A stretch of DNA of 63,620 bases, counting the filler, from Atractiella rhizophila (Eukaryota): NCBI GenBank assembly GCA_021432655.1. It is 5 parts of 5 records of this genome, joined end to end, with 100 filler letters (N's around TTAATTAATTAA, not from the genome) between each part and the next. Parts side by side here need not be neighbours in the genome. Positions count along the whole stretch, not along the records: positions 1 to 15,280 come from MU271938.1; 4 more parts are not named here. One strand, written 5' to 3'. The translations under genes and the position numbers were made by a program. Shown piece by piece: positions 43 through 59,992 of this stretch. Below the pieces are notes generated by a model. It saw only the letters and a program-made list of their open reading frames with translations, did no database searches and was not told the origin of the DNA. Each line of letters begins with the position of its first letter. Position 1 is the stretch's first letter.

Positions 43-3000
43 ATGACTACAAATCCCGTCAATGTATTCAAAGTTCTTGAAAACGTGAAGAGAGCGAATC
101 CGCTGGGACTACGAATCCTCTGCATCGACAATGGAGGCGTCGGCACTTTTTCAGCTCCCTACATGCTCGAACCCATCATGCGTCAAGCCGCACATCTTCT
201 CGACGTTCCAGAGGACGAAGAGCTTCGACCTTGCGACGTCTTTGATCTCATTTGTGGGACTTCTACCGGCGGATGGATCGCACTTCTGCTGGGGAGGCTG
301 GGAATGACCGTTCGTCAGTGCATTGCAGCATATGAAGAGATTGTGAGCAAGGTCTTTCGAGACGAGGATTCAGACCCTAGCGGCGCGTTCATGTTCTCGG
401 CGGAGAAGCTCGAAGAGACTCTGATTACCATCATCCAGCGACACACGCAATCTGCCGAAGATTCTGCCAAGTCACTTCCAATGAAGGACCCTTCTCTAGA
501 GCACAGATGCAGAACCCTCGTTCTATCCGCCTATCAGGCTACTGTTGTCGTTTCTACGGAGATGCGCACTTACGATATTGGTGGATCTGGCCCTCGCATC
601 GCTTGTCCATATTCCGTGTGGGAAGCCGCAAGAGCCACCTCGGCTCATCCTCCCTTCTTTGCTCCTATGAGCAAGGACTCTACCGGCTACGTCCAGCTAT
701 GTGACAACAACCCTGCAGCAGTAGCTTTGGACGAGGCCATGCGAATTTGGGGACGCAGCAATGAGATTGCTTGTCTTTTGTCTCTTGGTCCAGGCGTTAC
801 ACGCGCCGTCAAGCCGGGCCACACTCGGGATGATGTTGAACATGCGTTGAAGGCGATACTCGCAGATTGCTCAAAGGTTTCGAAGGACGTGAAGGAGAAG
901 ATGCAAGTTGGTGGGATGGGCCATTGCTATCATCGATTCTCGGTTGATACATTCGGAGGCTTCAAATGGGAGGACTGGGAGCGAAAGGAGGATGTTGTAG
1001 GCTGCACAAAGGCTTACATGGAAGCAATGAATCATGAAGTGTTCGCCGTGGCTAAGTCGCTCGTCCAAGGTATTCTCCATGACTGCATATTGCTGCATGC
1101 TGACGTCCCCTTATTCAGAATTTAAGGAACGCATTGCAGTACGCAGGAAACTCCCGTTACCTCCTCCAGGGGCTTGTTACGGAAGAGGTGACGAAGTTAC
1201 GGACGCGCTCAACTGCATCCTCACTGACCGCAAGCATCTTGCAATCATCGGTGGGGCTGGGAATGGGAAGTCTACTGTGGCTCTACAAGTTCTGCATGCC
1301 AAGGAAGTCAAAGATGCTTTCACAAGCACAGCGAAAGGTACCAGGCAAGATCTTCGGTTCTGGGCAAGTTGCGACGCTTTGACTACATTTTCATCCCTCT
1401 CCACGAGCCTTTGCAGACAGGTCTTCGGGATAGCTCCTCTACCTACCGAAAGCGAACTTGCTGCTGTCGCAAGATATTTCAGCAGTCACAGATGTCTCCT
1501 TGTCTTAGACAATTTTGAGACCCCTGCGGAATGCGACAAGGAAAACCTGCAGCCATTCTTTCAAGCTCTTCTTTCTGGCAACAATGAGATCGGTTCCATC
1601 CTCATTGTGGCACACCGAGGTTATCAGGCCTATCGGGTGAACGTCACAGGAGGGAAGTTTCAAAGTGTGGTGATCAGCGGCCTCAGCGACCACGGTGCAC
1701 TGGAATTCTTCACGGAGGCGTACACGGGAGAAGAGGATTGTACAGAAGAGCTACTCAAGACTGTTTTCACCGCACTGGATCATCACACCTTGTCCATCAA
1801 GCTATTTGTTCTTCGTGCCAACGCAGAATCTCCTAGGAGAGTGTCGGCCCTGTTGAAGGAGTGGGAAGCGGTGAAGATAGGTGTATTGTGGGACAAAGAT
1901 AGTGACGAAACCCCAACTCTTAAGAAGTCGATATATTTTTCACTTAGTTCGCATCGTCTTAAAATGCATGAGGATATGAGCATGTTTATTCTTGCTCTCT
2001 TATCCTGGACCCCTCAAGGCCTTCTGGACAGTGACATTCGGGCTATTGTGAACAAGGCCTCTCTTCCTTCTCTGGAGCAACCTTATGTGATCATTAATGC
2101 GATTTTGTGTGTCGGACTTGCTGAGAATGCATACGATACCCTGGCAGACTCAACACGATTTCGCATGCTGGCACCTATTCGTGAACACATTAATCACTTG
2201 GTCCTGCACTCTCTTCCTCCTTTCAACAATGCTGTTGCTTCATCCCTCCAGCCCGTAACGGACGTTCTTATCGATGTAGCTCGGGAAAATGTTCGGCAGT
2301 ATAAATATGAAGGTGAACGGATAGGGTTGCTGACATTCCGCAGCGATTATCCAAACATTGAATATGTTCTTCTGGCTGCTTTGGAACATCTCCAAAACAA
2401 GACAGTTACAGTCCATTTTCTAGTGGAAATGTGGCAATTTCTCTACCAGCAGAGCCTCCTCTCAATCAAATTACTCCAGCAGGCTCTGTCCATCGCGAAA
2501 TCTATAAGTTCTCCCCTGGAATTTAAAGCTGTTTTGACCATGGCTCTGGGGCTTGCATTCAGACATCAGGGGAGTAAAAAACAGGCCATGACACAATTTG
2601 AGGAGGCGAAGAAGCTGTATCTGAAGGTGGAAGACAAGCAGGGGCAAGCTTACTGCATTCACAGCATGGGGCAGATTGAGGAGCATCACGGGCAGATAGA
2701 GGAAGCGCTGAAACGATTCGAGGAGGCAAAGGAGCTGTATCTGAAGGTGGAAGACAAGCAGGGGCAAGCCCACTGCATTCAGAGCATGGGGAAGATCGAG
2801 CAGCATCACGGGAGGATGGAGGAAGCGCTGAAACGATTTGAGGAGGCAAAGGAGCTGTATCTGAAGGTGGATGATCAGCTGGGGCAAGCCCACTGCATTT
2901 ACAGCATGGGGGAGATCGAGCAGCATCACGGGCGGATGGAGGAAGCACTGAAACGATTTGAGGAGGCGAAGGAGCTGTATCTGAAGGTGGATGATCAGCA

Positions 3001-3901
3001 GGGGCAAGCCCACTGCATTTACAGCATGGGGGAGATCGAGCAGCATCACGGGCGGATGGAGGAAGCGCTGAAACGATTCGAGGAGGCGAAGGAGCTGTAT
3101 CTGAAGGTGGAAGATCAGCTGGGGCAAGCCCACTGCATTCGGAGCATGGGGGAGATTGAGCAGCGTCATGGGCGGATGGAGGAAGCGCTGAAACGATTCG
3201 AGGAGGCGAAGGAGCTGTATCTGAAGGTGGAAGATCAGCAGGGGCAAGCCCACTGCATTCGGAGCATGGGGAAGATCGAGCAGCGTCACGGGCGGATGGA
3301 GGAAGCGCTGAAACGATTTGAGGAGGCAAAGGAGCTGTATCTGAAGGTGGAAGATCAGCTGGGGCAAGCCCACTGCATTCGGAGCATGGGGGAGATTGAG
3401 CAGCATCACGGGCGGATGGAGGAAGCGCTGAAACGATTTGAGGAGGCAAAGGAGCTGTATCTGAAGGTGGAAGATCAGCTGGGGCAAGCCCACTGCATTC
3501 AGAGCATGGGGGAGATTGAGCAGCATCGTGGGCGAATGGAGGAAGCGCTGAAACGATTCGAGGAGGCAAAGGAGCTGTATCTGAAGGTGGATGATCGGCA
3601 GGGGCAAGCCCACTGCATTCGGAGCATGGGGGAGATCGAGCAGCATCACGGGCGGATGGAGGAAGCGCTGAAACAATTCGAGAAGGCGAAGGAGCTGTAT
3701 CTAAAGGTGGAAGACCAGCAGGGGCAAGCCCACTGCATTCGGAACATGGGGAAGATCGAGCAGCGTCACGGGCGGATGGAGGAAGCGCTGAAACGATTCG
3801 AGGAGGCGAAGGAGCTGTACCTGAAGGTGGAAGACAAGCAGGGGCAACCCAACTGCTTACAGAGCATGAGGAACATTGAGCATCAAGACAGCAGGGGATG
3901 A
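43..3901 (+). CDS. Patatin-like domain - NB-ARC (STAND NTPase) - TPR NLR-type protein (PLP-1-like architecture); join(43..1069,1119..3901), ~1269 aa
   Basis: Patatin motifs LCIDNGG, FDLICGTSTGG (GxSxG) and WEAARATSA. The 49-nt GT..AG intron 1070-1118 (branch GCTGAC) joins ORF 10..1125 in frame to ORF 1034..3901. P-loop GGAGNGKS, Walker B LLVLDNFE, and C-terminal 40-aa TPR repeats. The 3' end is frameshifted. Confidence 0.92.
2639..3901 (+). repeat. Intragenic array of ten near-identical 120-bp (40-aa) TPR units plus a partial eleventh
   Basis: GGGGCAAGC recurs at exact 120-nt spacing from 2641 to 3721 (variant GGGGCAACC at 3841). Consensus QGQAHCIxSMGEIEQHHGRMEEALKRFEEAKELYLKVEDQ. Confidence 0.97.
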
Positions 3902-4352
3902 ACGAAGCGCTGAAACGATTCGACGAGGCAAAGCAGCTCAATTTGAAGTGGGACCGTCGGTGGCTACCTACGAAGCTGTCAGCAGAAAGAACCTGGCCGA
4001 ACTCCTCTTCCAATCGTCCCAGTTCCTCCGTGCGACGCAGGAAAACCAATCTCGCCCGTCAGATTTACGCAGATTGCTCTGCCAGCTCCGATGTTGATGG
4101 TTGTGACACTCTGCTGCGGACAATTCAGCTCATTGAGAGTTTTCCTGGTTAAGACGTGTCATCCAAATAGTTTTGGTACTTTCCTTTCCCTTCACCTTGT
4201 GCAAGCAGACCTCCTGGTGCAGGATGTAACATTCTGCCTGAGCAACGCTGTCATCGTTATAAAATCGATGTTTCATTATGACCTGAAATGTAGACACAAT
4301 CCTCCTGATACTCGGAAGGTTACATGCCTTTACGCGAAGTTGTGGTGGTTGC
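3860..4352 (+). pseudogene. Frameshifted C-terminal cap and 3' flank of the NLR (cap copy 1)
   Basis: Homologous to 6800-7287: YEAVSRKNLAELLFQSSQF and LARQIYADCSASSDVDGCDTLL lie in different frames here but in one frame in the second copy. Confidence 0.8.
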
Positions 4353-4384
4353 GCGCAAATAAGATTATGTTCTCATCTATCCAA

Positions 4385-4419
4385 CTACTAACAGTACTTT
4401 AGGGTTCAACCCTGCCTCT
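4385..4419. repeat. 35-bp direct repeat, left copy (contains AGGGTT-C-AACCCT palindrome)
   Basis: CTACTAACAGTACTTTAGGGTTCAACCCTGCCTCT is identical at 6465-6499. Confidence 0.9.
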
Positions 4420-4809
4420 ACTACTATTCCTTCATGACGGAACTACTATTCCTTCGCGACGGAACTGTTCCGTCAGTCAAATTTGGCTGGGGAACGGAGT
4501 TAGGGTCAGGGCCATGGTGAGTCCCGTCAGCCCAGTCGCGAGGCTCTCACTAACGGAACTAACCTGACGGGACGGAACGCACCGTTGAGTCCCGTCAGCT
4601 CGGACGCGACGGCCAAATTGTCTCGCGAGGTTGGGATCAGCCCCGACATGAACTCGCTCAACATGCGAGGTTCATCGCGAGGGCGCCAAGTTCACTACCA
4701 GTCGCGAAGTGGGCACTTCGGGTCACTGGCTGGCTGTGACGTGTGAAGTGCCTTCTAGTTGAAAGGTCAAGTTTGGTTCAGCGATGGGTTCAACCTGCGA
4801 AAGGCTGCT

Positions 4810-5290
4810 GTAGTTGAGAGGGAGCAGGCTCGCAAGAAAGCAGATGCGCGAGAGAGTAAACTCGTGAGACTGCAAACGTGAGAGAGCACACTCGCGAGAC
4901 AGCAAGCTAGCGAGACAGTAAACCAGTGAGAATGCCAACTTGTGAGACAGCAAACTAGCAAGAATGCAAACTAGCGAGACAACAAACGCGAAAGAGCAAA
5001 CTAGCGAGACAGCAAACATGCGAGACGGCCAACGCGCGAGACAGCAAAAACCTGCGAGACGGCCAACTAGCCAGAATGTGAGCTCGCGAGAATACAAACT
5101 CTGTGAGAGAGCAAACTGGCGAGATGGCCAACTAGCGAGAATGCCAACTTGCAAGCATGCCAACTCGCCAGCATGCAAACTCGCGAGACTGCAAACGTGA
5201 GAGAGCAAACTAGCGAGACTGCAAATTTGTGAGACTGCAAACTCGTGCAACTCCAAACTCGTGAGAGACCAAACGCGTGACGTGAATCCA
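4810..5290. repeat. Degenerate CpG-rich minisatellite (GCAAACTMGCGAGAC-like units, ~16-17 bp)
   Basis: Repeated gcaaactagcgagac / gcaaactcgcgagac variants; only low-complexity spurious ORFs. Confidence 0.85.
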
Positions 5291-5339
5291 AATGCAAGTT
5301 TGCAGCAGTCCTGGTTTCACAAATGCCAACAGGACTTTG

Positions 5340-6464
5340 GCAGAGCGGGACCGTCTTCGCTTCAGCACTTATGGTTTTGCTGAAGTAAGCACGAGCTTGT
5401 GAGAGTGAGACTGGCTTTGCATCTGCGCTGCCAGTTTTGCTGCAGTGAACAGGAGTTTACCAGAGCGAGCCAGGCTTTGCAGGAGCGAAGTGACTTCGTC
5501 CAAGCAAGTCTGGCTGCACCCCAGCGAACTGCACTTCTCTTGAGCAAGCCAAGGTGCACTGGAGCGAGCCAGGCTTCGCAGGAGCAAACTGCACTTCGCC
5601 GGAGCGAGCCAGACTTCGCTGAAGCGAACTGGTTTCGCCGAAGCAAGCCTGACTTTGCTGCAGCGAACTGCACTTCACCCGAGTGAGTCTGCCTTCGAAG
5701 GAGCGAGCCTGGGCTTGCTGGAGCGAACTGACTTCGTCCTAGCGAGCCTGCCTTCGCTGGAGCGAGCCAGACTTCGCAGGAGCGAACTGACTTCGTCCTA
5801 GTGAGCCTGCCTTCGCTGGAGCGAGTCAGACTTCGCAGGAGCGAACTGTGCTTCGCTGGAGCGAGTCAGGCTTCGCAGGAGCGAACTTACTTCATCCTAG
5901 CGAGCCTGCCTTCGCTGGAGCGAACTTACTTCATCCTAGTGAGCCTGCCTTCGCTGGAGCGAACAGCACTTCGCTGGAGCGAACTTACTTCATCCTAGCG
6001 AGCCTGGCTTCGCTAGAGCGAACAGCACTTCGCTGGAGCGAGTCAGACTTCGCAGGAGCGAACTGTGCTTCGCTGCTGAAGCGAGTCAGGCTTCACAGGA
6101 ACGAACTTACTTCATCCTAGCGAGCCTGCCTTCGCTGGAGCGAGCCAGACTTTGCTGAAGCGAACTGGCTTCGCCCAAGCAAGTTTGACTTTGCTCCAGC
6201 GAACTGCACTTCGCTCGAGCGAGCCAGGCTTCGCTGGAGCGAACTTACTTCATCCTAGCGAGCCTGCCTTTGCTGGAGCGAACAGCACTTCGCTGGAGCG
6301 AGCCAGACTTTGCAGGAGTGAACGGACTTCGTCCTAGCGAGCCTGACTTCGCTAGAGCGAACAGCACTTCGCTGGAGTGAGCCAGACTTCGCAGGAGCGA
6401 ACTGACTTCGTCCTAGCGAGCCAGACTTCGTTAGAGCGAACTGACTTCATCCTAGCGAGCCTGC
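5340..6464. repeat. Degenerate CpG-rich minisatellite (GAGCGARC...CTTCGC units, ~20 bp, with higher-order blocks)
   Basis: Dozens of gagcgagccagacttcgc / gagcgaactgacttcgtcctagcgagcctgccttcgctg variants. Confidence 0.9.
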
Positions 6465-6480
6465 CTACTAACAGTACTTT

Positions 6481-6645
6481 AGGGTTCAACCCTGCCTCTT
6501 TCAGGAATGAAATCCAGGCTGAATCCTTGCCTCCTGGGCACCTAGGGTACAACCCTGCCTCTGTCAGGAACAGGATCCTGGCTGGATCCTTGCCTCCTGG
6601 CTGCCTAGGGTACAACTCTACCTCTATCAAGAACAAGATCCTGGC
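6481..6645. repeat. 63-bp tandem repeat (about 2.6 units, runs into a gap)
   Basis: Units start AGGGT(T/A)CAAC at 6481, 6544 and 6607. Confidence 0.85.
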
Positions 6646-6670
6646 NNNNNNNNNNNNNNNNNNNNNNNNN

Positions 6671-7143
6671 AGCAGGGGCAAGCCCACTGCATTCGGAGCA
6701 TGGGGGAGATCGAGCAGCATCACGGGCGGATGGAGGAAGCACTGAAACGATTCGAGGAGGCAAAGGAGCTGTATCTGAAGGTGGAAGATGTCGGAGGTCA
6801 ACTCATCTGTCTTACCGGCATGAGTTCCGTTTATGCTCAAGACCGGCAGGGCATGTCGGAGGCGATCAAGCTTTGCGAGCAAGCAGTCAATTTGAGTAAG
6901 ACAGTCAGTGGCTACTACGAAGCTGTCAGCAGAAAAGCCCTGGCTAAATGCCTCTTCCAATCGTCCCAGTTCCGCCGTGCGTCAGAGGAAACCACTCTCG
7001 CCCATCAGATTTATGCAGATTGTTCTGCCAGCTCCGAAGTTGATGATTGTGACACTCTACTGCAGGTAATTCAGCTCATTGAGAGTTTGCAAAAGTTGTC
7101 GAAATCGTTTTGTACTTTCCCTTCTCTCCTCTTTGTAAGCTGA
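6671..7143 (+). CDS. 3' part of a second NLR copy: one TPR unit plus an intact C-terminal cap (5' end lost in gap 6646-6670)
   Basis: TPR unit essentially identical to those of the first gene, followed in frame by EDVGGQLICLTG...YEAVSRKALAKCLFQSSQF...CDTLLQVIQLIESL. Confidence 0.75.
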
Positions 7144-7300
7144 CCTCCCAGTGCAGGATGTAATACTTGCCTAAGCAACACTTTTATCCATCATAAAATC
7201 GATGCTTTGATTACAATCTGAAATGTAAACACGATCCTCCTGATCTAGAAGGTTATATGCCTTTTACAAAAGGTTGTAGTGGTCGTGCTTTCATGAGACG

Positions 7301-9015
7301 CGATCCCTAGGGTTAGCGTTCAAGCTACAGGGGGATCTCCAACAGGCACTAAAGCATCTTGAGGATGCTAAGGAGCTCTATCACCAGGTGGAAGATCAGC
7401 GGGGTGAAGCCCATTCCATTTGTGGCATAGGGGAGATTGAGCAATATCAGAGGAGAAATAAGGAAGCACTCATGCAGTTCGAGAAAGTGAAGCAGCTGTA
7501 CGTGAAGATAGGAGATAGGCTAGGGGAGGCACACTGCTTCCGCAGCGTGGCAGAGATCAGCAACCATTGTATACAGAAGGAGGAAGCTTCGAAACAGTTT
7601 GAGGTAGCAAAACAGATGTATCTGAATGTGAAAGATCGACTAGGCCTGGCCCACTGCACCTTCAGCATTGGGGTGATTGAATGGTTTCGTGGGCAGATTA
7701 GTGAAGCGCTGGAACATTTTAAGGAGGCAAAAGAGCTGTATCTGAAGGTAGAGAACAGACATGGGCAAGCCACTTGCAATCACAAATTGGGGGAGATTAA
7801 GCGGCTGCATGGGTGGAATAAGGAAGTACTGAAACTTTGGGAGGAGGCAAGGCAGCTGTATGAGGAGGCGAAGGAGCAGGATGGCCAAGCACACTGCATT
7901 CACAGCATAGGGAATGTAAAGTTTCAGCGTGGAGGGAATGAGGAAGCGCTGAAACATTTCAAAGCAGCAAACTCTCTCTATGTGTGGCTGGGAGATTGGC
8001 AAGGACAAGCCCACTGTACTTATGGCATCGTGGAGATCGAGGCATTGCATGGGCAGAGTAAGGAAGCACGGAAACACCTTGGGCAGGCCAAGGAGCTTTA
8101 TTTATTGGCAGATGATTAACTTGGTGTTTCTCATTCAATTCATCGCGTGGCGATGGTGAATCTGCTTTGTGGGCAGAATGAGAAAGCGCAGAAATGGTTC
8201 GAGGAGGCAAAGGATCACTATGTAAAATTGGAAGATCAACAGCGCCAAGCCCACTGTATTCGTGATATAGAGAGGATCAAGCTGCTTTATGAGCAGAATG
8301 AGGAAGCTTTGTTACAGTTTGAGGAGGCAAAGCGACTGTATCTGTGTGAGGAAGATAAGCAAGGTCTACCCAGCTGCCTTCAGTTCATAGAGGAGATTGA
8401 GCTGATTTACCGGTGTAACGAGGATGCGCTACAACATTTCGAGGAAGCAAATGTCAGGATGGCTATAGACCAACAGCTAACCAACTGAACTAAAAGAGCT
8501 AATGATGGGTGTTTACACCCATCTTGGTCTGTACTTAAGGTATATCAGGGGCTCGAACCCTGACAGCAAAGGGGTTCCATCTTCAGACAGAAGATCCGCG
8601 TGGTCAAGCCACTTGCATTCAAGGTATAGGGAAGATCAAGCAGCTTTATGCACAGACTGAGGAAGTACTGAAAAACTTTCAGGAGGCAAGGGAGCTTTTT
8701 GTAGTGGCTGAAGATCTGGGAGGTCAACTCAGCTACCTTATGAACATAGGTCAAGTTTATGCTCAAGACTGCCAGATTTCCAAGGTGATTGAGGTTTGTG
8801 AGGTAGCCGTGATTTTGAGCCGTGCAGTAGGTGGCCACAATGAAGCTCGTAGCAGGAAGTCTCTTGTCCTAGCTCTCTTCCTATCATCTCAGCACTCTGG
8901 TGCTAGAGAGGAGTTTATTCTTGCGCATCAATGCTTCGCTGATTGTTTGATATATTCCAAAGTACATGATTGTGATGATTGGCTTCACAGGATTGATCAG
9001 GTGGGCTTCCAATAG
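7301..9015 (+). pseudogene. Headless, diverged TPR array plus cap (third module), pseudogenised
   Basis: Starts SLGLAFKLQGDLQQALKHLEDAKELY, homologous to the NLR's first TPR ALGLAFRHQGSKKQAMTQFEEAKKLY. It has 40-aa TPR units, an in-frame TAA at 8117-8119 and a solo-LTR insertion, and ends in cap EDLGGQLSYL...HDCDDWLHRID. Confidence 0.85.
8452..8565. mobile_element. 114-bp solo LTR-like insertion with 5-bp TSD
   Basis: Ends TGTCAGG...CCTGACA, flanked by GCAAA at 8447-8451 and 8566-8570. Removing 119 bp restores the TPR frame (EEAKGFHLQTEDPRGQATCIQGIG). Confidence 0.85.
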
Positions 9016-9617: not shown

Positions 9618-12477
9618 GGGTGTCAGGTTTGCAACTTACACAAACTGGCGCCCGTTCGCTGGATTGCGTCTCTTATCGCCCATTTGCGTTCTCTGCAAAT
9701 CGGTGTCGTTCACATTCTATGCGAATCGACGCCCCGTTGCCACTCTGCGCCCCGTTGCCTGTTCGCCCATTTGTACTCACATCAATACTTAGCCCAATTG
9801 TGTCTATTCTCCTCTTATTAACCTGCGTAATCCCTCTGTCACTTTCCCCTTTTAGTTCTCTTACATGTTTCACCTGCTCTTCTCTACACTCTGTGGCAGT
9901 GTTATTCCGCTTGTATATAGATTGAAGAGTAGTGGAGGCGACCTTTGAGTATTCTCTTAGGTTTATCTACACTACAGATGCATCATCCATCGGTGACCAT
10001 ACATAGTGTCAGCCCTAACGTACGGATAGCAAGAAGATCATGGGCGATGAGTCTTAAAATCGGATAAGTGCCTTTGTGGCAAAGGGCTTTATAAGAATCT
10101 GAGGGAAGTCAATTGAGGACACACCTTCCACCATTGAACGGGATCGTGGGTTGTGAGATATTTGATACATCTAACAATCACTGCTCTGACAAGCATGAAC
10201 CGATGTGAATCGTGGTGATTGCAGCGGAAGATGATATGAAGACATGGGAGTGGGCCTATTTAAAAACTCACTTTTTCTTGGATTCCACTTTTTTTTGGAT
10301 CACATTTTTAAGTTCCGATCAGATCTGAGCGGCTGAAAATACAGTTAGAAAAAGATTAACTCGAGTTCACAAGCTCGAAACCAAAAAAGTGAAAAGTGAT
10401 GGTGGAATGAAGGACCTCAGGTTTGGGGGTCAGATTGATCACTTTTCAAGTTGTCATTCGGGAAAACCACAGTGCTCCGATCCTGTTATATGGTGGTCGG
10501 TGGTACAGACCACCGTCGCTTGCATAACCATTTTTGCACTTTTTGAAGGATCCTCTCCAATGCACCCTGTTTATGCAGTTATGTCATAGGCCTTGCTGAT
10601 TCTGTCAACTATATGTCTGGAGGAGGCTGACGACCTTGAAGACAATTTTGACACTGCTTACACATCAATAGCCATTTCCTCCAATTTCCGCATTTTACAA
10701 TGGCAAGCGATTGATTTTGGGGCTCAATATGGTCCCAGAGGGCCGTATGATGTCCCAAAATCAATTGACATTTATCCCATACACCTGAATCATGCCAGAG
10801 AAAGGTATCTTCAAAGTTTTTATTGGTAGGCTTCTCTCAATTTTTTCTTCTCTTCAATTTATGGAAAGGGGCATAGAATGGGGAAGCCCACTTTCCATTT
10901 TATCTGTCACCTACTAGCCCTCACCACACCTTTCCAGCCAAAGGGGACTGGCCAACCACAAGCTGCTGTTGATGTTCAGTTTGCAACATACCTTTGGTTC
11001 TTTGGTAGCTCATCACATAACTGTCATTTTGATGCTGCTAGAGACACATCTATTGCTGTAGAGTCTGTCCACAATCATATACTTCGGGTCATCTCTGGTT
11101 TGCAAGAAATGGAACTTCGATTTCTTAAATGGCCATCAGCTGCTCACCACGAAGTTATTATGAAGGGATTTGGTCTTTCCGGTTACATTGGAGCTGTTGA
11201 TGGGTCTCTCATTCCACTCTCATTTGTTCCTAAGGAGCGAGCCTTCTGGTATTGGTGCGAGAAGAAACATTACGGAGTATGTACTACTTCTTCGTTGTAT
11301 CGTAGTACTCATTTCATCCAGATTGTTCTTCAAGCAGTTTGTGACCATGACATGTGATATATCAGTTATGAGACTGGGTGGGGGCATCACAGAACGATGT
11401 GTTTGTATGGAACAACTTGGATGTTTGGCTAACCAGCAAAAGTGCTTCAGACTGAGTGAATTCCTTCTAGGAGATAAAGGTATGCCCATTGTTTACTTTA
11501 TTATATTACTATGGCTTCATTCCGTCTTGACTCAGGATATCCTTTATCTCCTTATTGTATCCGGCCATTTTCAGCACCCGAGTTTTCGCCACTGCCAGCC
11601 CAAAAAGCATCCCAGGTGGACATAAGGCTCATTCCTCAGCTCGTGTTATTATTGAAAATGCATTTGGTGTATTGAAAGGTTAGCTTTTCTTCTTCCTTGC
11701 AACTTTGATACTCTAATGTTAGCAACAAGGTCGTTTTCCTGCTCTTTATGGAATGACCAGGGATTACATGCATGACATATATGCCAGTGTTGTTTCAATG
11801 ATGATTGTGTACAACATCTGTTTGGATATGGGGGACAAGGTAGAAGATCTAGCAGAATATTACTTGCTATCATCCAAAGCACAGGGGGAGCTAGATGTGA
11901 GGTGAAGGGAACTGGCTGAATCAAGGGCTGCTGAATGTTGTGATGAGGATGGAGCTGACAACCAAGAGGATGCATGGAATGGGATTGCTGATGATGTGAG
12001 TATACGAATGCTCCAAAATGGGAAGAGGAGACGAGATACAGTGCTGAAGGACCTCTTTACTCGGGGTTAACATGATAATCTATTATTTTAGCTCCATTGC
12101 AGAAGAGAATACTTTCAGTTGTCACCCATTTCCAAGTCAAGATCCGATCTATATATACAAGCGGAATAACACTGCCACAGAGTGTAGAGGAGAGCAGATA
12201 TATAAGAGAACTAAAAAGGGGAAGTGACAGTGGGATTACACAGAGTTAACAAATGGGCTAAGTGGTGATGCAGGTGCAAATGGGCTAACGGGCGACTGGG
12301 CGCTGATTTGCACTGCATGCTAATAGGCAATGGGAGACACAGAGTGGCAACGGTTCGCAGATTTGTATAGAACGCAAACGGGCGAACAGGCGCTGATTCG
12401 TGGGGAACGCAAATGGGCGATAGGAGACGCAATCCGGCGAACGGGCGCCGATTTGCATAAGATGCAAACCTGACACC
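9618..12477. mobile_element. PIF/Harbinger-like DNA transposon with long imperfect TIRs (9618-9922 / 12147-12477)
   Basis: GGTGTCAGGTTTGCA... versus ...TGCAAACCTGACACC; the inverted homology continues about 300 bp. TTA precedes the left end; the right TSD is not clean. Confidence 0.85.
10560..12070 (+). pseudogene. HARBI1/DDE_Tnp_4-type transposase pseudogene
   Basis: GYIGAVDGSLIP, KKHYG, LQAVCDH, LLGDKG and HSSARVIIENAFGVLK motifs, with introns and in-frame stops. Confidence 0.85.
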
Positions 12478-34703: not shown

Positions 34704-36893
34704 TCATTGACCAACAATGTACGGCTCGCTAGAGTTGAAAATGAGATATGGCTTGCGCTCGGCGAGGTCCAGGATCATCTCTGCAAATCAATGATCAACG
34801 AAAACAGAAGAATGATCGAGTTATTGATGAATACTTGCCTGCCCAGTACGAGTTTGCCCAAGCAAACCACGGTCTTGTGTACTTGGTTGTGTTGTAGATG
34901 TTCTGGGACTCGTGGATCAAGCCCAATCCAACGTGTTCTATTTACGAGGCCAAATGAGCTTTGAAAGGAAGAATAGAAAGTTCGTACGTTGGCAATCGTG
35001 TAAAGGTAAGTCATGATTTCAGAATCGTCGCTAGTTCCGTAAATGGAGCTGACTGTTTCAGCGTTTGGTTACAATTTGCAAACGGGACTCAAAGACGTAC
35101 TCAAGCTCATAGGCCACGGGTTTTGCGTTCCTACGAGGCACAGTGAGCGAGTTTTCTCGTGCAAATGAAAATGACAACAGACCAGGGCTGGCGTGTGGTC
35201 CGCCGACGCCGAAGAAATTCTTTCCCTTAGCAAAGTAGCCATTGCCCCTACTCAACAGTCTATCCTTTGTCTTCTTATATCTCCAATCGTTGCGATCTAA
35301 GAAACCAAGATACGGAAGTGAGAGGAGGGAAGGAACGTTAGCATCGTCCTGTCTATTGTGGGATCCAAATCCATCGACCTCGAACGAGAAGGAACCATCG
35401 AGGACACCATAGTCATAAATAGCCTTCTTGATCTGACTAGACCACTTCCTAGCTCCGGAAACGAAGGTGGAGGAGCCGTTTCCGACGCCTTCAATCGTGT
35501 CTGCCAGGTGCAACAGTTCGACGGACAGCATGGCGTTCGCGGGGACGAGGTAGGCGTAGATTCCTTTGTCATCTGAAGGACGGTGGTGGGTTCCCACCAT
35601 GCCAGTGTATGCCTGAAAGAACACAATGTGCGATGTGAGATTGGAGACACGAAACGTACCTTCGGCTCTCCGTTTCCAGAGTTGAAAATCCTGGGAGATA
35701 GTGCGCCAGTAGTACCAGTCCACTACGCACTCCTCATCAATACCGTACGAAAGTTGGAGAGTTCTCAGCTGCGCACATTGTAATAGGAGATATACTACAG
35801 CGTAGTGGTCCAATCAGCTCCATCAATCAAGAAGAGAAACTCGCCTACATTCCAGTTTTCATCGAAGGTCGGCTGACTTTGCTCATCCATGACCCTGAAG
35901 ATCTGTCCGATAGCTTCATACCAATTATCATTTGCGAACGACTTGTCACCAGTCGCAGAAAAGTAGGAGCGAGAGAGCTTGAGGAAACCACAGAGGGAGT
36001 CGATTTCGTATTTGCACTCGAAGACGGTCGTGTTGTCCACCTGCACCGTTTACCATCATTAAATTTGGGTTGGTAGGTGCAGATGTGGACAGAAGACTAA
36101 CGGGAGGGTTCACGGTCACGTTGTAAGCCCATTCATTGTAGGTTGGAGGGAGGCCGGATTCTGGAGGAGGTTGGAACGCTGTTTCATTCCGCATTCATTC
36201 AACGCCAATTCGACAGCCAGAGACGAAGAAGCAAGAACTGAGCGTACCTCCACAATAAGGAAACTGCTTGATGTAGCGTGCCTCGTTATTGATAATAGCC
36301 TTCACGAGCGTTGAGAGCTCAGTGTCATTCTTGAGGAGCTTGGAATAGTGAGCGAACTGGTTTGCTGTGTCGCGGAGCCATTGAGCACTACAGTAACTAT
36401 CAGCATGGGAAGATGGAATGATGGAGGAAAACATACTTGATATCCCCCGTGATGATAAAGGCGATGTTCTCAGTCTTTTCACCACGTTCCATCAGCCTTT
36501 CTTCAAGACAAGACGGAGAGAAAAGGGAAACTGACATCGTTGTAATAGCTAACAGTAGTATCTAGCGTATTAGGAAAGGTGTTCTCGAATAACCTAGCGA
36601 TATCTGGATCCTTCAGACGGGCTTTCATATCCGTGATGACTTTCTATTCAGTAACGTCTCTCTTCATGAGAATTGAACCGGCAGCTTCAGAAGAAACGGC
36701 ACACCTCGACAGAGGAGCTGTTGAAAGTTCTGCACTGCGGATCAGGACGCATGTAAGGGAGGGCGAGAGGTCCAGCAGAAGGGTTGCCTTGAGGCGTCTG
36801 GGAGTACTCGACATAGTCAGGACATCCTTCTGGCAGCCTCGGGCCGGCAAGGACGACTGGGAGGATGGGTAAGAGGGCTGTAAGCAACTGCAT
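34704..36893 (-). CDS. Glycoside hydrolase family 125 (exo-alpha-1,6-mannosidase-like), secreted
   Basis: Signal peptide; FENTFPNTLDTT, ITGDI/AQWLRD, FECKYEIDSL, RPSDD, DDANVPSLLSLPYLGF. Confidence 0.9.
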
Positions 36894-49401: not shown

Positions 49402-49937
49402 GGATTTTATCCTTGCCGCTCAAGTGAAGTGAACACTTCACTTGGAAGGGTCAAGAAAAGGAGACGACGGACAGGTTTTGCATGTGTGGATATTTTGAGC
49501 TCTGTTGTTCTTCAATACCCAAATACCAATGGGGTCAAAAAAACAAAATCCAAGCAACCCAAAGCAAGGAAGAACCAATAAAGAAAAAAGAATCCACAAA
49601 ACGGTCCGTAAGAAAAAAAAAAAGGGAGTGGTAATGTGTAACCAGTCTTGCATCACAATTACAGCCAGCCCCCGCTTCAAAGACAACTTTCTCGCCATTT
49701 GTAGTACGTCAGCAGCAGTCAGAAAGCAACTTAGGAAGCTTAGGTAACCATCGATACATTGTGAGCCACAATTTGTCCGGGGCAAGTTGGGGAAGCATTC
49801 TGATTGGCTCCATCTTTATCCGAGATATTTGAAAATGCGTGGCGTGCTCAAGAAGAATTTTTGATCAACAAAAAGCAACCACCTTCTCGTTCCACGTTCC
49901 AGCCCTCCATCAGTTCTCCTCTTCTAGACTTTCAGCC

Positions 49938-51452
49938 ATGGTCGCCAACGGTACCGCTTCTCGCAAAATCGCGAAATTACCCAACAATCACTTCCTCTTC
50001 ACTTCCGAAAGTGCGTATTCTTCCCCAGATTTTTCTTTTCTAAGATTCCGAGCTGACTTTGTGGCGAAAACAGGTGTGGGAGAAGGGCACCCCGACAAGA
50101 TCGCAGATCAGATCTCAGACTCCATTCTTGATGCATGTCTCGCCCAAGATAAATGGTCAAAGGTCGCCTGCGAGACTGCCACCAAGACCGGAATGGTCCT
50201 TGTCTTTGGAGAGATTACGACCGCCGCTCAACTCGATTATCAGAAGATCGTCCGTGATTGTGTCAAGAAGATTGGCTACGACGATTCTGTCAAGGGATTC
50301 GATTACAAAACCCTCAATCTTCTTGTCGCCATCGAGCAGCAGAGCCCCGACATTGCTCAAGGTTTAGACAGGGGAAATTTGGAGAACCATGGCGCGGGTG
50401 ACCAGGGAATCATGTTTGGTAAGCTCTCTACCCTTTACCTTCGAAAGTTTGGGCAAGGAGGAGATGTACATTGCGCCACCTACTGGCAAATCATGAAAGG
50501 GAGATGGCGCAATTGCATCAGTTGACATAAATTGATACTGATGAACTGTAGTTCATTGTGTCGGTCAACTTGGAGACTCGGGGTACTCATTACTGATGAC
50601 ACTTCACTGCAGGATATGCAACGGATGAAACTGATTCATACATGCCTCTCACCCTCACCCTCGCTCACGGCCTCAACCGTCGTATGGCGGACCTTCGACG
50701 TGTTCCTGCTTCTGATCCCGATGCTCTCCCTTACCTCCTCCCCGATTCCAAGTCTCAAGTTACGATCGAATACGAGAAACTTGAATCAGGCGCTGTACGA
50801 CCCATCCGCGTTGACACTGTCGTCATTTCAGTCCAACATAAAGAGGATGTGGAAGTTGAGACACTAAGGAAGGACGTACTTGAGAAGGTCGTGAAGAATA
50901 TTATTCCTAAGAACATGCTCGATGAGAGGACGATCTATCACATTCAACCCACTGGTCGTTTCGTCATAGGAGGCCCGCAAGGAGACGCTGGTCTGACCGG
51001 AAGGAAGATCATCGTGGACTCTTACGGCGGATGGGGAGCGCACGGTGGCGGAGCTTTCTCTGGAAAGGATTGGTCCAAGGTCGATCGTTCCGGCGCATAT
51101 GCCGCTCGTTGGGTCGCGAAGTCTCTCGTTGCCGCTGGACTCGCCAAACGTGTCCTCGTCCAATTCTCGTACGCCATCGGCGTCGCTGAACCCCTCAGCG
51201 TCTTTGTCGACTCTTACGGAACTGGATCCAAGACGGATGAGGAGCTCAGTGAGATCATCGCGAAGAACTTCGACCTTCGACCTGGTGTGATTGTGAAGGA
51301 GTTGGACCTCCAACGTCCTATTTATGCCCAGACTGCCAGCTAGTGCGTTTTTCTCTCCTCTCCCACATGAACACATTCTGAATGCCTTGGATAGTGGTCA
51401 CTTTGGAAACCCCAATTACCCATGGGAGAAGCCTAAACAGCTTAAATTCTAG
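49938..51452 (+). CDS. SAM1: S-adenosylmethionine synthetase
   Basis: [53 protein letters not shown]. Confidence 0.97.
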
Positions 51453-57729: not shown

Positions 57730-59992
57730 ATGTCTAATCGAGGAGGCGTCGATCTAACACCCGACTACCTCCAACCAGGCTTTGACCCGTCCAAGCTCAA
57801 AGTCGCCGAACTTCGTGCTGCACTTTCAAGGGAAGATGTGGAGTTCAACCCATCGGCAAAGAAGGGGGAACTGTTGGAAGTTTTCAAGAAGGAAATAGAG
57901 GCAAAGGCTCCCGTCCGTCCTTCCCTTCATGCTTTCTGTGAATAAAAGAGTGGCCAGCTGATCCGTCGTGCCGGGATAGAAATTGAGAAAGCAGTATCAG
58001 AATGTCAAGCCTTCGAATAGGGGAGTATACGAGATCTCAGCTAGTGAGACCGAGAGTGTAGACCTTGATGTGAATGGGGACGCAGATGGAGAGGTTTGTA
58101 TCTTCCTCTTTCCAAGTCGCTTTATGGGCTCACACATAGAACCGATAGCTCTCACCCGCAAAACCGAAGAAGAAAGGGAAAAAGAAGAAGACTTTATATG
58201 CTCCTCCTCCTCCTCCTCCTATCCCTATCCCCGTCGAAGACGAACTCGGCGACGGAGACAGTACGCTCGAAGTCATAAATGCTACGAAGCCCAAGAAACG
58301 AAAATCGAGAGTCTCCGCCGCTGCTTTCGACCTCGATCTTGCGGACGATGGGGCCGCTGGAAATTCATCGTTTTCGGATTACAACCCCTTCCAAGGCGGT
58401 GGAAGTGCACCGAGCACGCCTGGGCTTGACGAAGCGAGAAAACGGCCGAGGAGCAGTTCCCCAACCAAGAGGGGGAGAGAATCGATCGGAACGGGGAGTC
58501 CAGTCACTGGTTCGTTGATCCCAGCAGCTTTTCATCCGAAGGCGAAGGAGACACGGGGAAGGGAAGAGGGAAGTGTCGGTTTGGGATTGGAGAATGAGAA
58601 CGAGGTTTTTGAGAGCGTTAAGAAGAGAAGGGCAAGGATGAGCTCTCCATTCAAGAAACCGAGGAGCAGTGAGGTCGAGAGGGAACGACTGCAGCGACAA
58701 GTGGAGGACGATGTACGAGATATGGAGGGAGAGATTGAGGATGCGGTCCAGATTCATTCACCGAAGTTGGATGGAGGCGTAAAACGGAAAGGGAATTCTT
58801 TCGTCGGTTCTTTGATCTCAGCCCTCTGGATCACGTCGAAGACGATCGTCGTCCTTTTGATCCTAGTATGGGGCGGGATTTGGGGATTGGAGAAACAGGC
58901 TGTCGGGTTCTGCGATCAATCCTTTCATACCAACTCCCTCCTCATCCAGCGGATTCAATCTCCTCACCCCTTCATCTCCCCCAAGCTCACTTTCGTCCCT
59001 CCAATCAAAGACGAATGGAAACCATTTCTCGATCCTTTAGTCCCTCAGCCAACGTGCACTTTGTGCCCTCCTCACGCCGATTGCTCTGATGGATTCATCA
59101 GAAGCTGCAACGCCTCTTCCCCCGACTATGTGCTGACCCCCCATCCTCTCCAATTCGGCGAAACCCTCCCTCCTCTCCCAGCGTTGGGCATCTTTCCTTC
59201 TTGCGAGCCCGACACGGAACGACTGCAGAAAATCGTAGACACTACAAATCTTGTAAAGTCGCGCTTGAGGAAGAAAAGAGGAGAGGTCATGTGCAGCTCG
59301 TTGAGCTGGGGAACGAGGGAACCGAGTAATTTCGCGGTGAAGCTGGACGAACTTATGGCTGAAGTGGACGAGGACGTGAAGAATGTAGTGAAGGGGGAAT
59401 TGGAGTTGGATGGCGATATCATCGTTGTGGACCTTGATGGATCGAAGGCGTTGGCCAGTGCGAAGGAGGAGCTCCCCTGGAGCTGTTGGATCAGGCAACG
59501 GACCTTGGCTTGGACTTGGGAAAATAAGTTTTGGTTGATCGGTTCGTTTCTCTCTGCAGACTTGGGATACTTGGCTGAATGTTCATGAAGGCATGATTTT
59601 TTTGCTGTATCAATTTAACAGCTTGCGGAACTGGATAAATCGACGGCAGTCTGATCCACCGCTCGTTCAGCGTTTATACAAGGAATCGCTTCAACATATC
59701 AAAGAGAATGTCAGTCATTCCTCCTTTATTCTTGATTATTTCTAATCAAAAGAACCAGTCATTCAACAATAGGAAGGACCCATTGCACTACCCATACCCC
59801 TACATCGTCCCCATCAACATGCGTGACTCGCTCCTTGACGACTATAGTATTCACGAGCGGCAAAGGATATGGAAACAAGTCGAGGCGAAAGTCAGCGGAA
59901 ATTCTAACGTACGATCAGTTCCTCGAGCACATAGAGGTGAAACGGTCAAGATATGGGAATGGGTTGGAGACGACAGCCCACAGTTGAAATAG
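57730..59992 (+). CDS. SRC1: Inner nuclear membrane LEM/HeH-MSC protein (Src1/Heh1/Man1)
   Basis: HeH domain DYLQPGFDPSKLKVAELR, FSDYNPFQ, TM helix + GFCD, CTLCPPHADC, IWKQVEAKVSGNSNVR...WEWVG. Confidence 0.9.

Follow-up and report, generated by a model that had tools for sequence, protein, structure and literature searches.

The window analysed here is a 63,620-nucleotide (nt) stretch of the basidiomycete Atractiella rhizophila (assembly GCA_021432655.1), made of five parts joined end to end, and near its start it carries an array of ten almost identical tetratricopeptide repeat (TPR) units. This array is the C-terminal TPR sensor of a fungal NOD-like receptor (NLR) with a patatin-like head and a central STAND NTPase, and the window gene is one member of a large patatin-NLR family in this basidiomycete. 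Taken as a whole, the account we consider likely is that of a tripartite NLR whose TPR sensor varies in the groove and whose units are homogenised, in a gene that is chimeric as printed. The initial annotation had also read the array as part of a fungal NLR, which is supported by the patatin domain (PF01734), the P-loop NTPase and the TPR units.

Gene architecture and the TPR array

The gene region comprises the following features, all on the plus strand except the strandless gap.

43-1069, plus strand: exon 1, patatin-like (PNPLA) head (Pfam PF01734, E=6e-14; alignments to solved patatins and homologs)
1070-1118, plus strand: predicted 49-nt GT..AG intron, joining the patatin and NTPase frames (its removal opens the frame)
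1119-2518, plus strand: STAND NTPase and helical region (Walker A GGAGNGKS at 1250-1273; Walker B LLVLDNFE)
2519-2638, plus strand: degenerate first TPR unit
2639-3838, plus strand: ten 40-amino-acid (aa) helix-pair TPR units with variable residues 1, 8, 12, 16, 38 and 40
3839-3949, plus strand: indel-rich junction with an apparent stop at 3899-3901, an assembly artefact (alignment to paralog C295; read contigs)
3950-6645, plus strand: falsely duplicated sequence of the paralog G000:C295 (C295 in the text), taking in its C-terminal cap and 3' flank with an interspersed repeat and a satellite (99.8% identity, 0 mismatches)
6646-6670, no strand: 25-N assembly gap, which may hide more units
6671-7143, plus strand: last TPR unit and intact C-terminal cap to the stop codon, the probable true gene end
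7280-9015, plus strand: another TPR array, divergent but built on the same 40-aa type of unit, interrupted by an in-frame stop and by frame breaks (Pfam TPR_12)

Removal of the predicted intron at 1070-1118 results in an open frame of 849 aa to base 2638. The NTPase matched NACHT (PF05729) over the cut-off (E=1e-6, 29.1 bits against 26.7), and NB-ARC (PF00931) weakly and under the cut-off (E=0.002). With Walker A and the Walker B Asp intact, the gene has the central STAND NTPase of fungal NLRs with TPR repeats of high internal conservation (HIC), and the patatin, joined via the predicted intron, provides the N-terminal effector-type domain of that class.

A tandem period of 120 bp was detected at 2589-3938 by Tandem Repeats Finder (11.2 copies, 92% matches), in which 2639-3838 holds ten full units with pairwise differences of 4-15 of 120 nt and a mean DNA identity of 92.3% over 400 aa. 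In PMC4986451 (cited papers, here and below, are represented by their accessible portions) the HIC-TPR class is defined by TPR repeats more than 85% identical over at least 100 aa, within which the window array falls. The ten near-identical units and their variable codons were correctly described in the initial annotation: residue 8 reads CAC, CAG, TAC, TAC, CGG, CGG, CGG, CAG, CGG and CGG by unit, and residues 1 (Q/L), 12 (Q/K/E), 16 (H/R), 38 (E/D) and 40 (K/Q/R) vary as claimed. Both K/E at residue 12 (position 3752) and R/H at residue 16 (3765) were found in the read-derived contigs of all three runs.

The claim that variation concentrates at a few sites stood for codon 8, which is the most diverse and exceeds the random placement of array diversity (P=0.029, 100,000 permutations). 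The synonymous codons 13, 27, 30 and 39, absent from the initial annotation, show no less variation and reassortment than the listed residues. Reassortment between units is real, since all four gametes occur at 46 of the 78 informative pairs of sites and the units therefore recombine. Its reading as a sign of selection was rejected, as synonymous sites reassort as well. Likewise, the difference between TAC and CGG does not call for a triple change, because single steps lead via CAC and CAG, both present in the array.

In the Pfam TPR_1 register, unit residue 10 corresponds to profile position 7, which makes residues 8, 12 and 16 the TPR positions 5, 9 and 13. TPR positions 2, 5, 9, 12, 13, 33 and 34 are the most variable and concave ones, and positions 2, 5, 6, 9, 12 and 13 are concave contacts to peptides or ligands (PMC1261162). 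An AlphaFold2 (AF2) model of four units, built on an alignment of 80 natural segments with a predicted local distance difference test score (pLDDT) of 97.2, placed helix A at residues 40-16 and helix B at residues 20-36, with residues 40 (the helix start), 1, 8, 12 and 16 on helix A and residue 38 in a loop. The closest PDB matches of the model are groove-binding TPRs, among them LGN, kinesin light chain (KLC) and RapF (template modelling scores 0.8-0.94), and a single-sequence AF2 model of all 11 units (pLDDT 47) was set aside. The proposal that residues 8, 12 and 16 share one face of a TPR helix is supported accordingly, residue 38 being the one that lies elsewhere, and by their TPR numbering the three residues are taken to face the concave binding groove.

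Variation in the groove and CpG mutability

In total, 46 arrays (324 units) were extracted from the window and 38 of 40 loci, and the 12 that reached 85% internal identity and five clean units were used for pooled per-codon ratios of amino-acid to synonymous change. The listed positions also vary in the paralogous arrays (10-12 of the 12). Without correction, the pooled ratios were 2.42 at residue 8, 2.27 at residue 40, 1.66 at residue 12, 1.55 at residue 16 and 1.25 at residue 1, and the residue 8 ratio in the window only was 3.9; all these values were replaced by CpG-aware ones.

CpG sites are mutation hotspots in the arrays. CpG transitions constitute 47% of the pairwise differences in the window versus 6% of the possible changes, and they also account for four of its five non-singleton synonymous sites. 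Across the 12 arrays, under the same ascertainment, synonymous diversity was 0.22 at CpG versus 0.03-0.09 at CpA, CpC and CpT, and it was highest at TpCpG (0.27). TpCpG hypermutation of repeats is known in Pucciniomycotina (PMC3318451), and C-to-T enrichment in Podospora HIC NLRs (PMC13449251). The Arg, His, Tyr and Cys codons at residues 8 and 16 are linked by CpG transitions, which explain much of the variation at these two residues; the changes at residues 1, 12 and 38 and the K/Q change at residue 40 are not CpG changes.

With separate baselines for CpG and non-CpG changes, the pooled ratio was 2.08 (1.59-2.71) at residue 12, 1.43 (1.13-1.89) at residue 40 and 1.42 (0.96-2.09) at residue 1, and non-CpG changes alone gave 2.0 (1.4-2.7) at residue 12 and 2.85 (2.0-4.2) at residue 40. 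An amino-acid excess after CpG correction is clear at residue 12 and weaker at residue 40. The six groove positions have a mean of 1.03 versus 0.61 for eight exposed helix-B positions and exceed random six-codon sets (P=0.014). In a distant subclade, where three of 15 further arrays passed the filter, residues 39, 40 and 12 rank top. Constraint on the groove is probably relaxed, and selection probably diversifies residue 12, while residue 8, the most conspicuous site, owes much to mutation bias.

Several points weigh against a selected groove. The array-wide pN/pS of the window is 0.38, the scaffold being under purifying selection; with CpG correction the pooled ratio of residue 8 falls from 2.42 to 1.34 with an interval that touches 1 (1.00-1.75), that of residue 16 from 1.55 to 1.00 (0.69-1.51), and the groove residues 5, 9 and 15 of the unit are not raised (0.27, 0.67 and 0.81). 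The ratios are rough pairwise counts from arrays that recombine, are not independent of each other and are misassembled in part; 40 codons were tested without correction, and the 12 arrays include allelic pairs and shared units. The term concave is based on TPR numbering and PMC1261162 rather than on atomic contacts, the model having come without coordinates, and NLRs with such repeats are described as mostly of unknown function in PMC13449251. The active diversification proposed in the initial annotation is thus weakened, as in the per-codon comparison of units and paralogs an amino-acid excess stays clear at residue 12 and, more weakly, at residue 40.

Misassembly, family and surroundings

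The gene as printed is a chimera, in which 3839-6645, the stop at 3901 included, is misassembled, and the end of the array at 3901 given by the initial annotation is not borne out. The stretch 3839-3949 is full of indels relative to C295, and 3950-6645 aligns to it over 2696 bases with 0 mismatches and 6 gap positions; C295 itself continues gap-free there. The stretch 30-2638 is ~98% identical to the C98 gene and 84-92% (one bin 74%) identical to the C295 gene. The post-gap segment 6671-7143, with one more unit and an intact cap, matches the last part of the C98 gene at 94-97% identity and is the likely true 3' end.

Read-derived contigs of runs X1 and X2 jump from 3834 to 3947, read depth drops at 3871-3908, and the extra bases of the window at 3967 and 4042 are absent from these contigs. 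The letters of the post-gap tail at the places equivalent to 4035-4100 are present in read contigs. Depth of the C295-type tail was 140.9 in X1 and 105.9 in X2, and one contig that carries, at 4092 and 4100, letters common to the C98 tail and the post-gap tail had 288.6 and 197.3; as read depth in itself is no copy number, this is an internal comparison of tails. The tail depth is about half that of the doubly shared letters, which indicates one copy of the C295-type tail in the sample and two in the assembly, and the stop at 3901 is therefore not real. Its reading as a truncated or pseudogene allele was rejected on the same ground, the stop being an assembly artefact. The read-contig comparison covered 3719-4840, hence unit 10 onward, with contigs that do not span the whole stretch; run X3 covered nine of 30 bins, and the junction was judged from X1 and X2, which are one sample that may be the source of the assembly and test the assembly, not the biology.

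Units 8, 9 and 10 carry alleles found otherwise only in units 8, 9 and 10 of C295 (in-register sharing P=0.006), and they are probably part-chimeric with C295, as fits a mixed consensus; true gene conversion is a possible cause as well. A collapsed consensus of several loci, raised in the initial annotation as the outcome that would undo its reading, accordingly holds for the 3' end and probably for units 8-10, and is improbable for the whole array. In the present assembly, neither the unit count nor the sequence in which the units follow each other is reliable. Direct short duplications at the start of the C98 gene (L021:1896-2273) and in the C1158 cap (L023) look like similar gap-filling artefacts, and C178 has overlaps similar to them.

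The assembly has 93 NTPase matches (tblastn-type) and 115 patatin matches. Elsewhere in the window, two of two ordinary genes are each matched by another copy (95-97% identity), both on one other contig, so the assembly probably holds two haplotypes and the numbers of loci may be about half of the match counts. C98 is the probable second haplotype of the window gene, an allelism judged from colinearity and from the second gene copies on one contig pair. Its array has 17 units, some identical to each other and none to a window unit, and the window has at least 11 units around the gap. Codon 27 is TTC in the post-gap unit and in six window units; C98 has no TTC there, and the window haplotype therefore has alleles of its own. 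No stop interrupts the C98 and C295 genes before the cap (1332 and 1026 codons). Many paralogs have stops or frame breaks.

The second, divergent TPR array (7280-9015 in the window) has no adjacent NTPase and lies downstream of the gene on C759, C98 (L021:7528-9020) and C1158 (L023). C98 and C1158 have five of its units in identical form, possibly through redundant assembly. Series of 3-11 identical TPR units are shared across the arrays L030/L031 (C189), L037/L038 (C79/C300) and L025/L026 (C222/C352), reflecting either recent exchange or further misassembly.

In the patatin head, the nucleophile motif GTSTG is kept and the glycine loop reads DNGG, while the catalytic Asp-Gly-Gly (DGG) motif is absent (YVQ--LCDNNP in the window versus YVDGGLFANDP in a solved patatin). 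The window and 80 loci supplied 61 near-full-length patatin domains, of which 53 are followed by the NTPase of this family, with the catalytic Asp (DG) in 0 and the Ser in 52 of the 53. DGG is intact in four of the eight other patatins of this genome, and all 8 outside homologs aligned with them carry the Asp. dN/dS of the patatin against paralogs has a median of 0.205 (range 0.10-0.38; 44 of 48 pairs, four being saturated), and judged from these ratios the Asp-less head is conserved regardless. An Asp five residues upstream of the lost motif, common in the family, is unlikely to replace the catalytic one, since true enzymes carry the same Asp besides DGG. The intact-DGG patatins L085, L086, L087 and L089 (C70, C68, C414 and C258) have no family NTPase within 400 nt and are candidate active partners or ancestors of the Asp-less head. 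The head gave 31 database hits, the six best of which are labelled Atractiella rhizophila (39-57% identity) and may be paralogs from the same genome, not independent ones. PLP-1 is absent among the 31, and the best ascomycete patatin-NLR matches show 27-35% identity in the head.

Around the gene, 4385-4840, part of the C295 flank, is an interspersed repeat with ~50 assembly matches and very high read depth; one contig of run X2 extends from 4626 into TTAGGG telomere repeats, and the repeat is possibly a telomere-associated element. The satellite-like arrays at 4847-6645 (16, ~20 and 63 bp) are copied from the C295 flank. At 10830-12070 lies a broken open reading frame (ORF), absent at the matching place of C98 and partly present on C1158, which resembles a PIF/Harbinger-type DDE transposase (IGAVDGSLIP ... 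ARVIIENAFGVL); Pfam searches returned no match for two ORF fragments at 10830-11625 and none for six of the 15 window ORFs searched. Downstream of the gene, 13856-14418 matches L021:561-1114 upstream of the C98 gene, and this recurrence suggests a tandem unit of ~13-15 kb. From 15281 onward the window consists of several joined contigs with paired 44-N runs, in which Pfam identified the following genes or fragments.

35058-35813: GH125 fragment
49833-51343: SAM synthetase
58149-59588: Man1/Src1 domain gene

Mechanism, alternatives and known receptors

In the mechanism we propose, unequal crossing-over and gene conversion would keep the units alike and alter their number, and mutation, much of it C-to-T at CpG, would supply variants. 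Purifying selection would clear those in the scaffold, tolerate those in the groove and, at residue 12 and perhaps residue 40, favour them. Binding of a peptide or protein by the groove might release the NTPase, leading to oligomerisation and head activation as for Neurospora PLP-1. Because the head has no catalytic Asp, its output is more likely to be scaffolding or lipid binding than ordinary lipase activity. The specificity code of the initial annotation is overstated, and a non-self role is plausible. A bolder and doubtful extension is a repertoire of tens of NLRs with a conserved Asp-less (pseudo-lipase) head, whose CpG Arg codons at TPR positions 5 and 13 would serve as a built-in diversity generator: a mutator acting at CpG, either methylation-driven or resembling repeat-induced point mutation (RIP), would replace Arg by His, Gln, Cys or Tyr, and shuffling of repeats would spread the variants.

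The variation might instead be neutral, the outcome of CpG hypermutation and gene conversion in a groove that merely tolerates it, with no selected code. The surplus of CpG transitions, the raised synonymous diversity at CpG, the hypermutation at TpCpG known in Pucciniomycotina and the CpG-connected codons of residues 8 and 16 are all in keeping with this. However, residues 1, 12 and 38 and the K/Q change at residue 40 do not vary through CpG, and residues 12 and 40 stay high on non-CpG changes and recur in the distant subclade with other amino acids (n=3), which leaves a neutral origin rather unlikely.

That the entire combinatorial code is an assembly product, a read consensus of several near-identical loci, is favoured by the false C295 copy at the 3' end, the C295-private alleles in units 8-10, a Tyr at residue 8 that is absent from C98 and present in C295, the identical-unit runs across contigs and the unreliability of short-read assemblies of such repeats, for which long reads are needed (PMC12222747). 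Such an origin is improbable, as every window unit differs from all units of other arrays (minimum difference 1 to C98 and 5 to C295), the variants are seen in read contigs, the same positions vary in other arrays, and TTC at codon 27 is shared by the post-gap and six window units and missing from C98. The missing catalytic Asp, the paralogs with stops or frame breaks and the broken downstream array could also point to a decaying or decoy copy of an over-expanded family with no working sensor, yet this is very improbable given that the stop at 3901 comes from misassembly, the C98 and C295 frames continue to the cap, both Walker motifs are intact and the patatin evolves at a median dN/dS of 0.205. 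The preferred reading is still the tripartite NLR with a groove-variable sensor.

The structural features of the gene, as read from sequence, place it among the HIC-TPR NLRs. According to PMC4986451, high internal conservation marks 21% of the TPR regions of fungal NLRs, with a polymorphic repeat number and with positively selected sites that lie on the concave face, and patatin NLRs number ~1.7 per species; exchange between TPR paralogs was described in PMC13449251. Podospora Pa_2_10340, PaPnt1 and Pa_7_3550 (both papers) share with the window gene the STAND NTPase and near-identical TPR units, variable sites on the concave helix face, paralog exchange and C-to-T changes as a source of diversity, and their repeat-number polymorphism resembles the contrast of at least 11 units in the window with 17 in C98, if the two are alleles. 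The window gene differs in its basidiomycete host, its patatin head, a far larger patatin family (in a two-haplotype assembly) and a mutation context of CpG instead of CpA/T. LGN/GPSM2, KLC and Rap-type TPRs resemble the modelled array in their helix-pair units of ~40 residues and peptide-binding groove, but show 14-20% sequence identity, are not NLRs and are not internally homogenised.

PLP-1 of Neurospora crassa and HET-Z1 of Podospora anserina are allorecognition NLRs that recognise the SNARE SEC-9 and trigger cell death at fusion. They share the patatin-NB-ARC-TPR domain order with the window gene (PMC12881547). PLP-1 cell death depends on patatin activity in the same paper, whereas the window gene has no competent Ser-Asp dyad, in line with the 53 NTPase-linked copies examined. 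Since the dyad is missing, the window gene should not, on present evidence, be filed as PLP-1. No paper on a large expansion of Asp-less patatin NLRs was among the matches listed, subscription journals being mostly outside the coverage. As homogenised TPR arrays whose variable sites face the groove have been known since 2014, with an extension in 2026, a single gene adds little to them, beyond the caution that apparent hypervariable codes can be inflated by CpG mutability and cross-paralog misassembly, both of which are present here. If true, a large patatin-NLR expansion with a conserved Asp-less head would mean that signalling by these receptors bypasses the lipase step reported for PLP-1.

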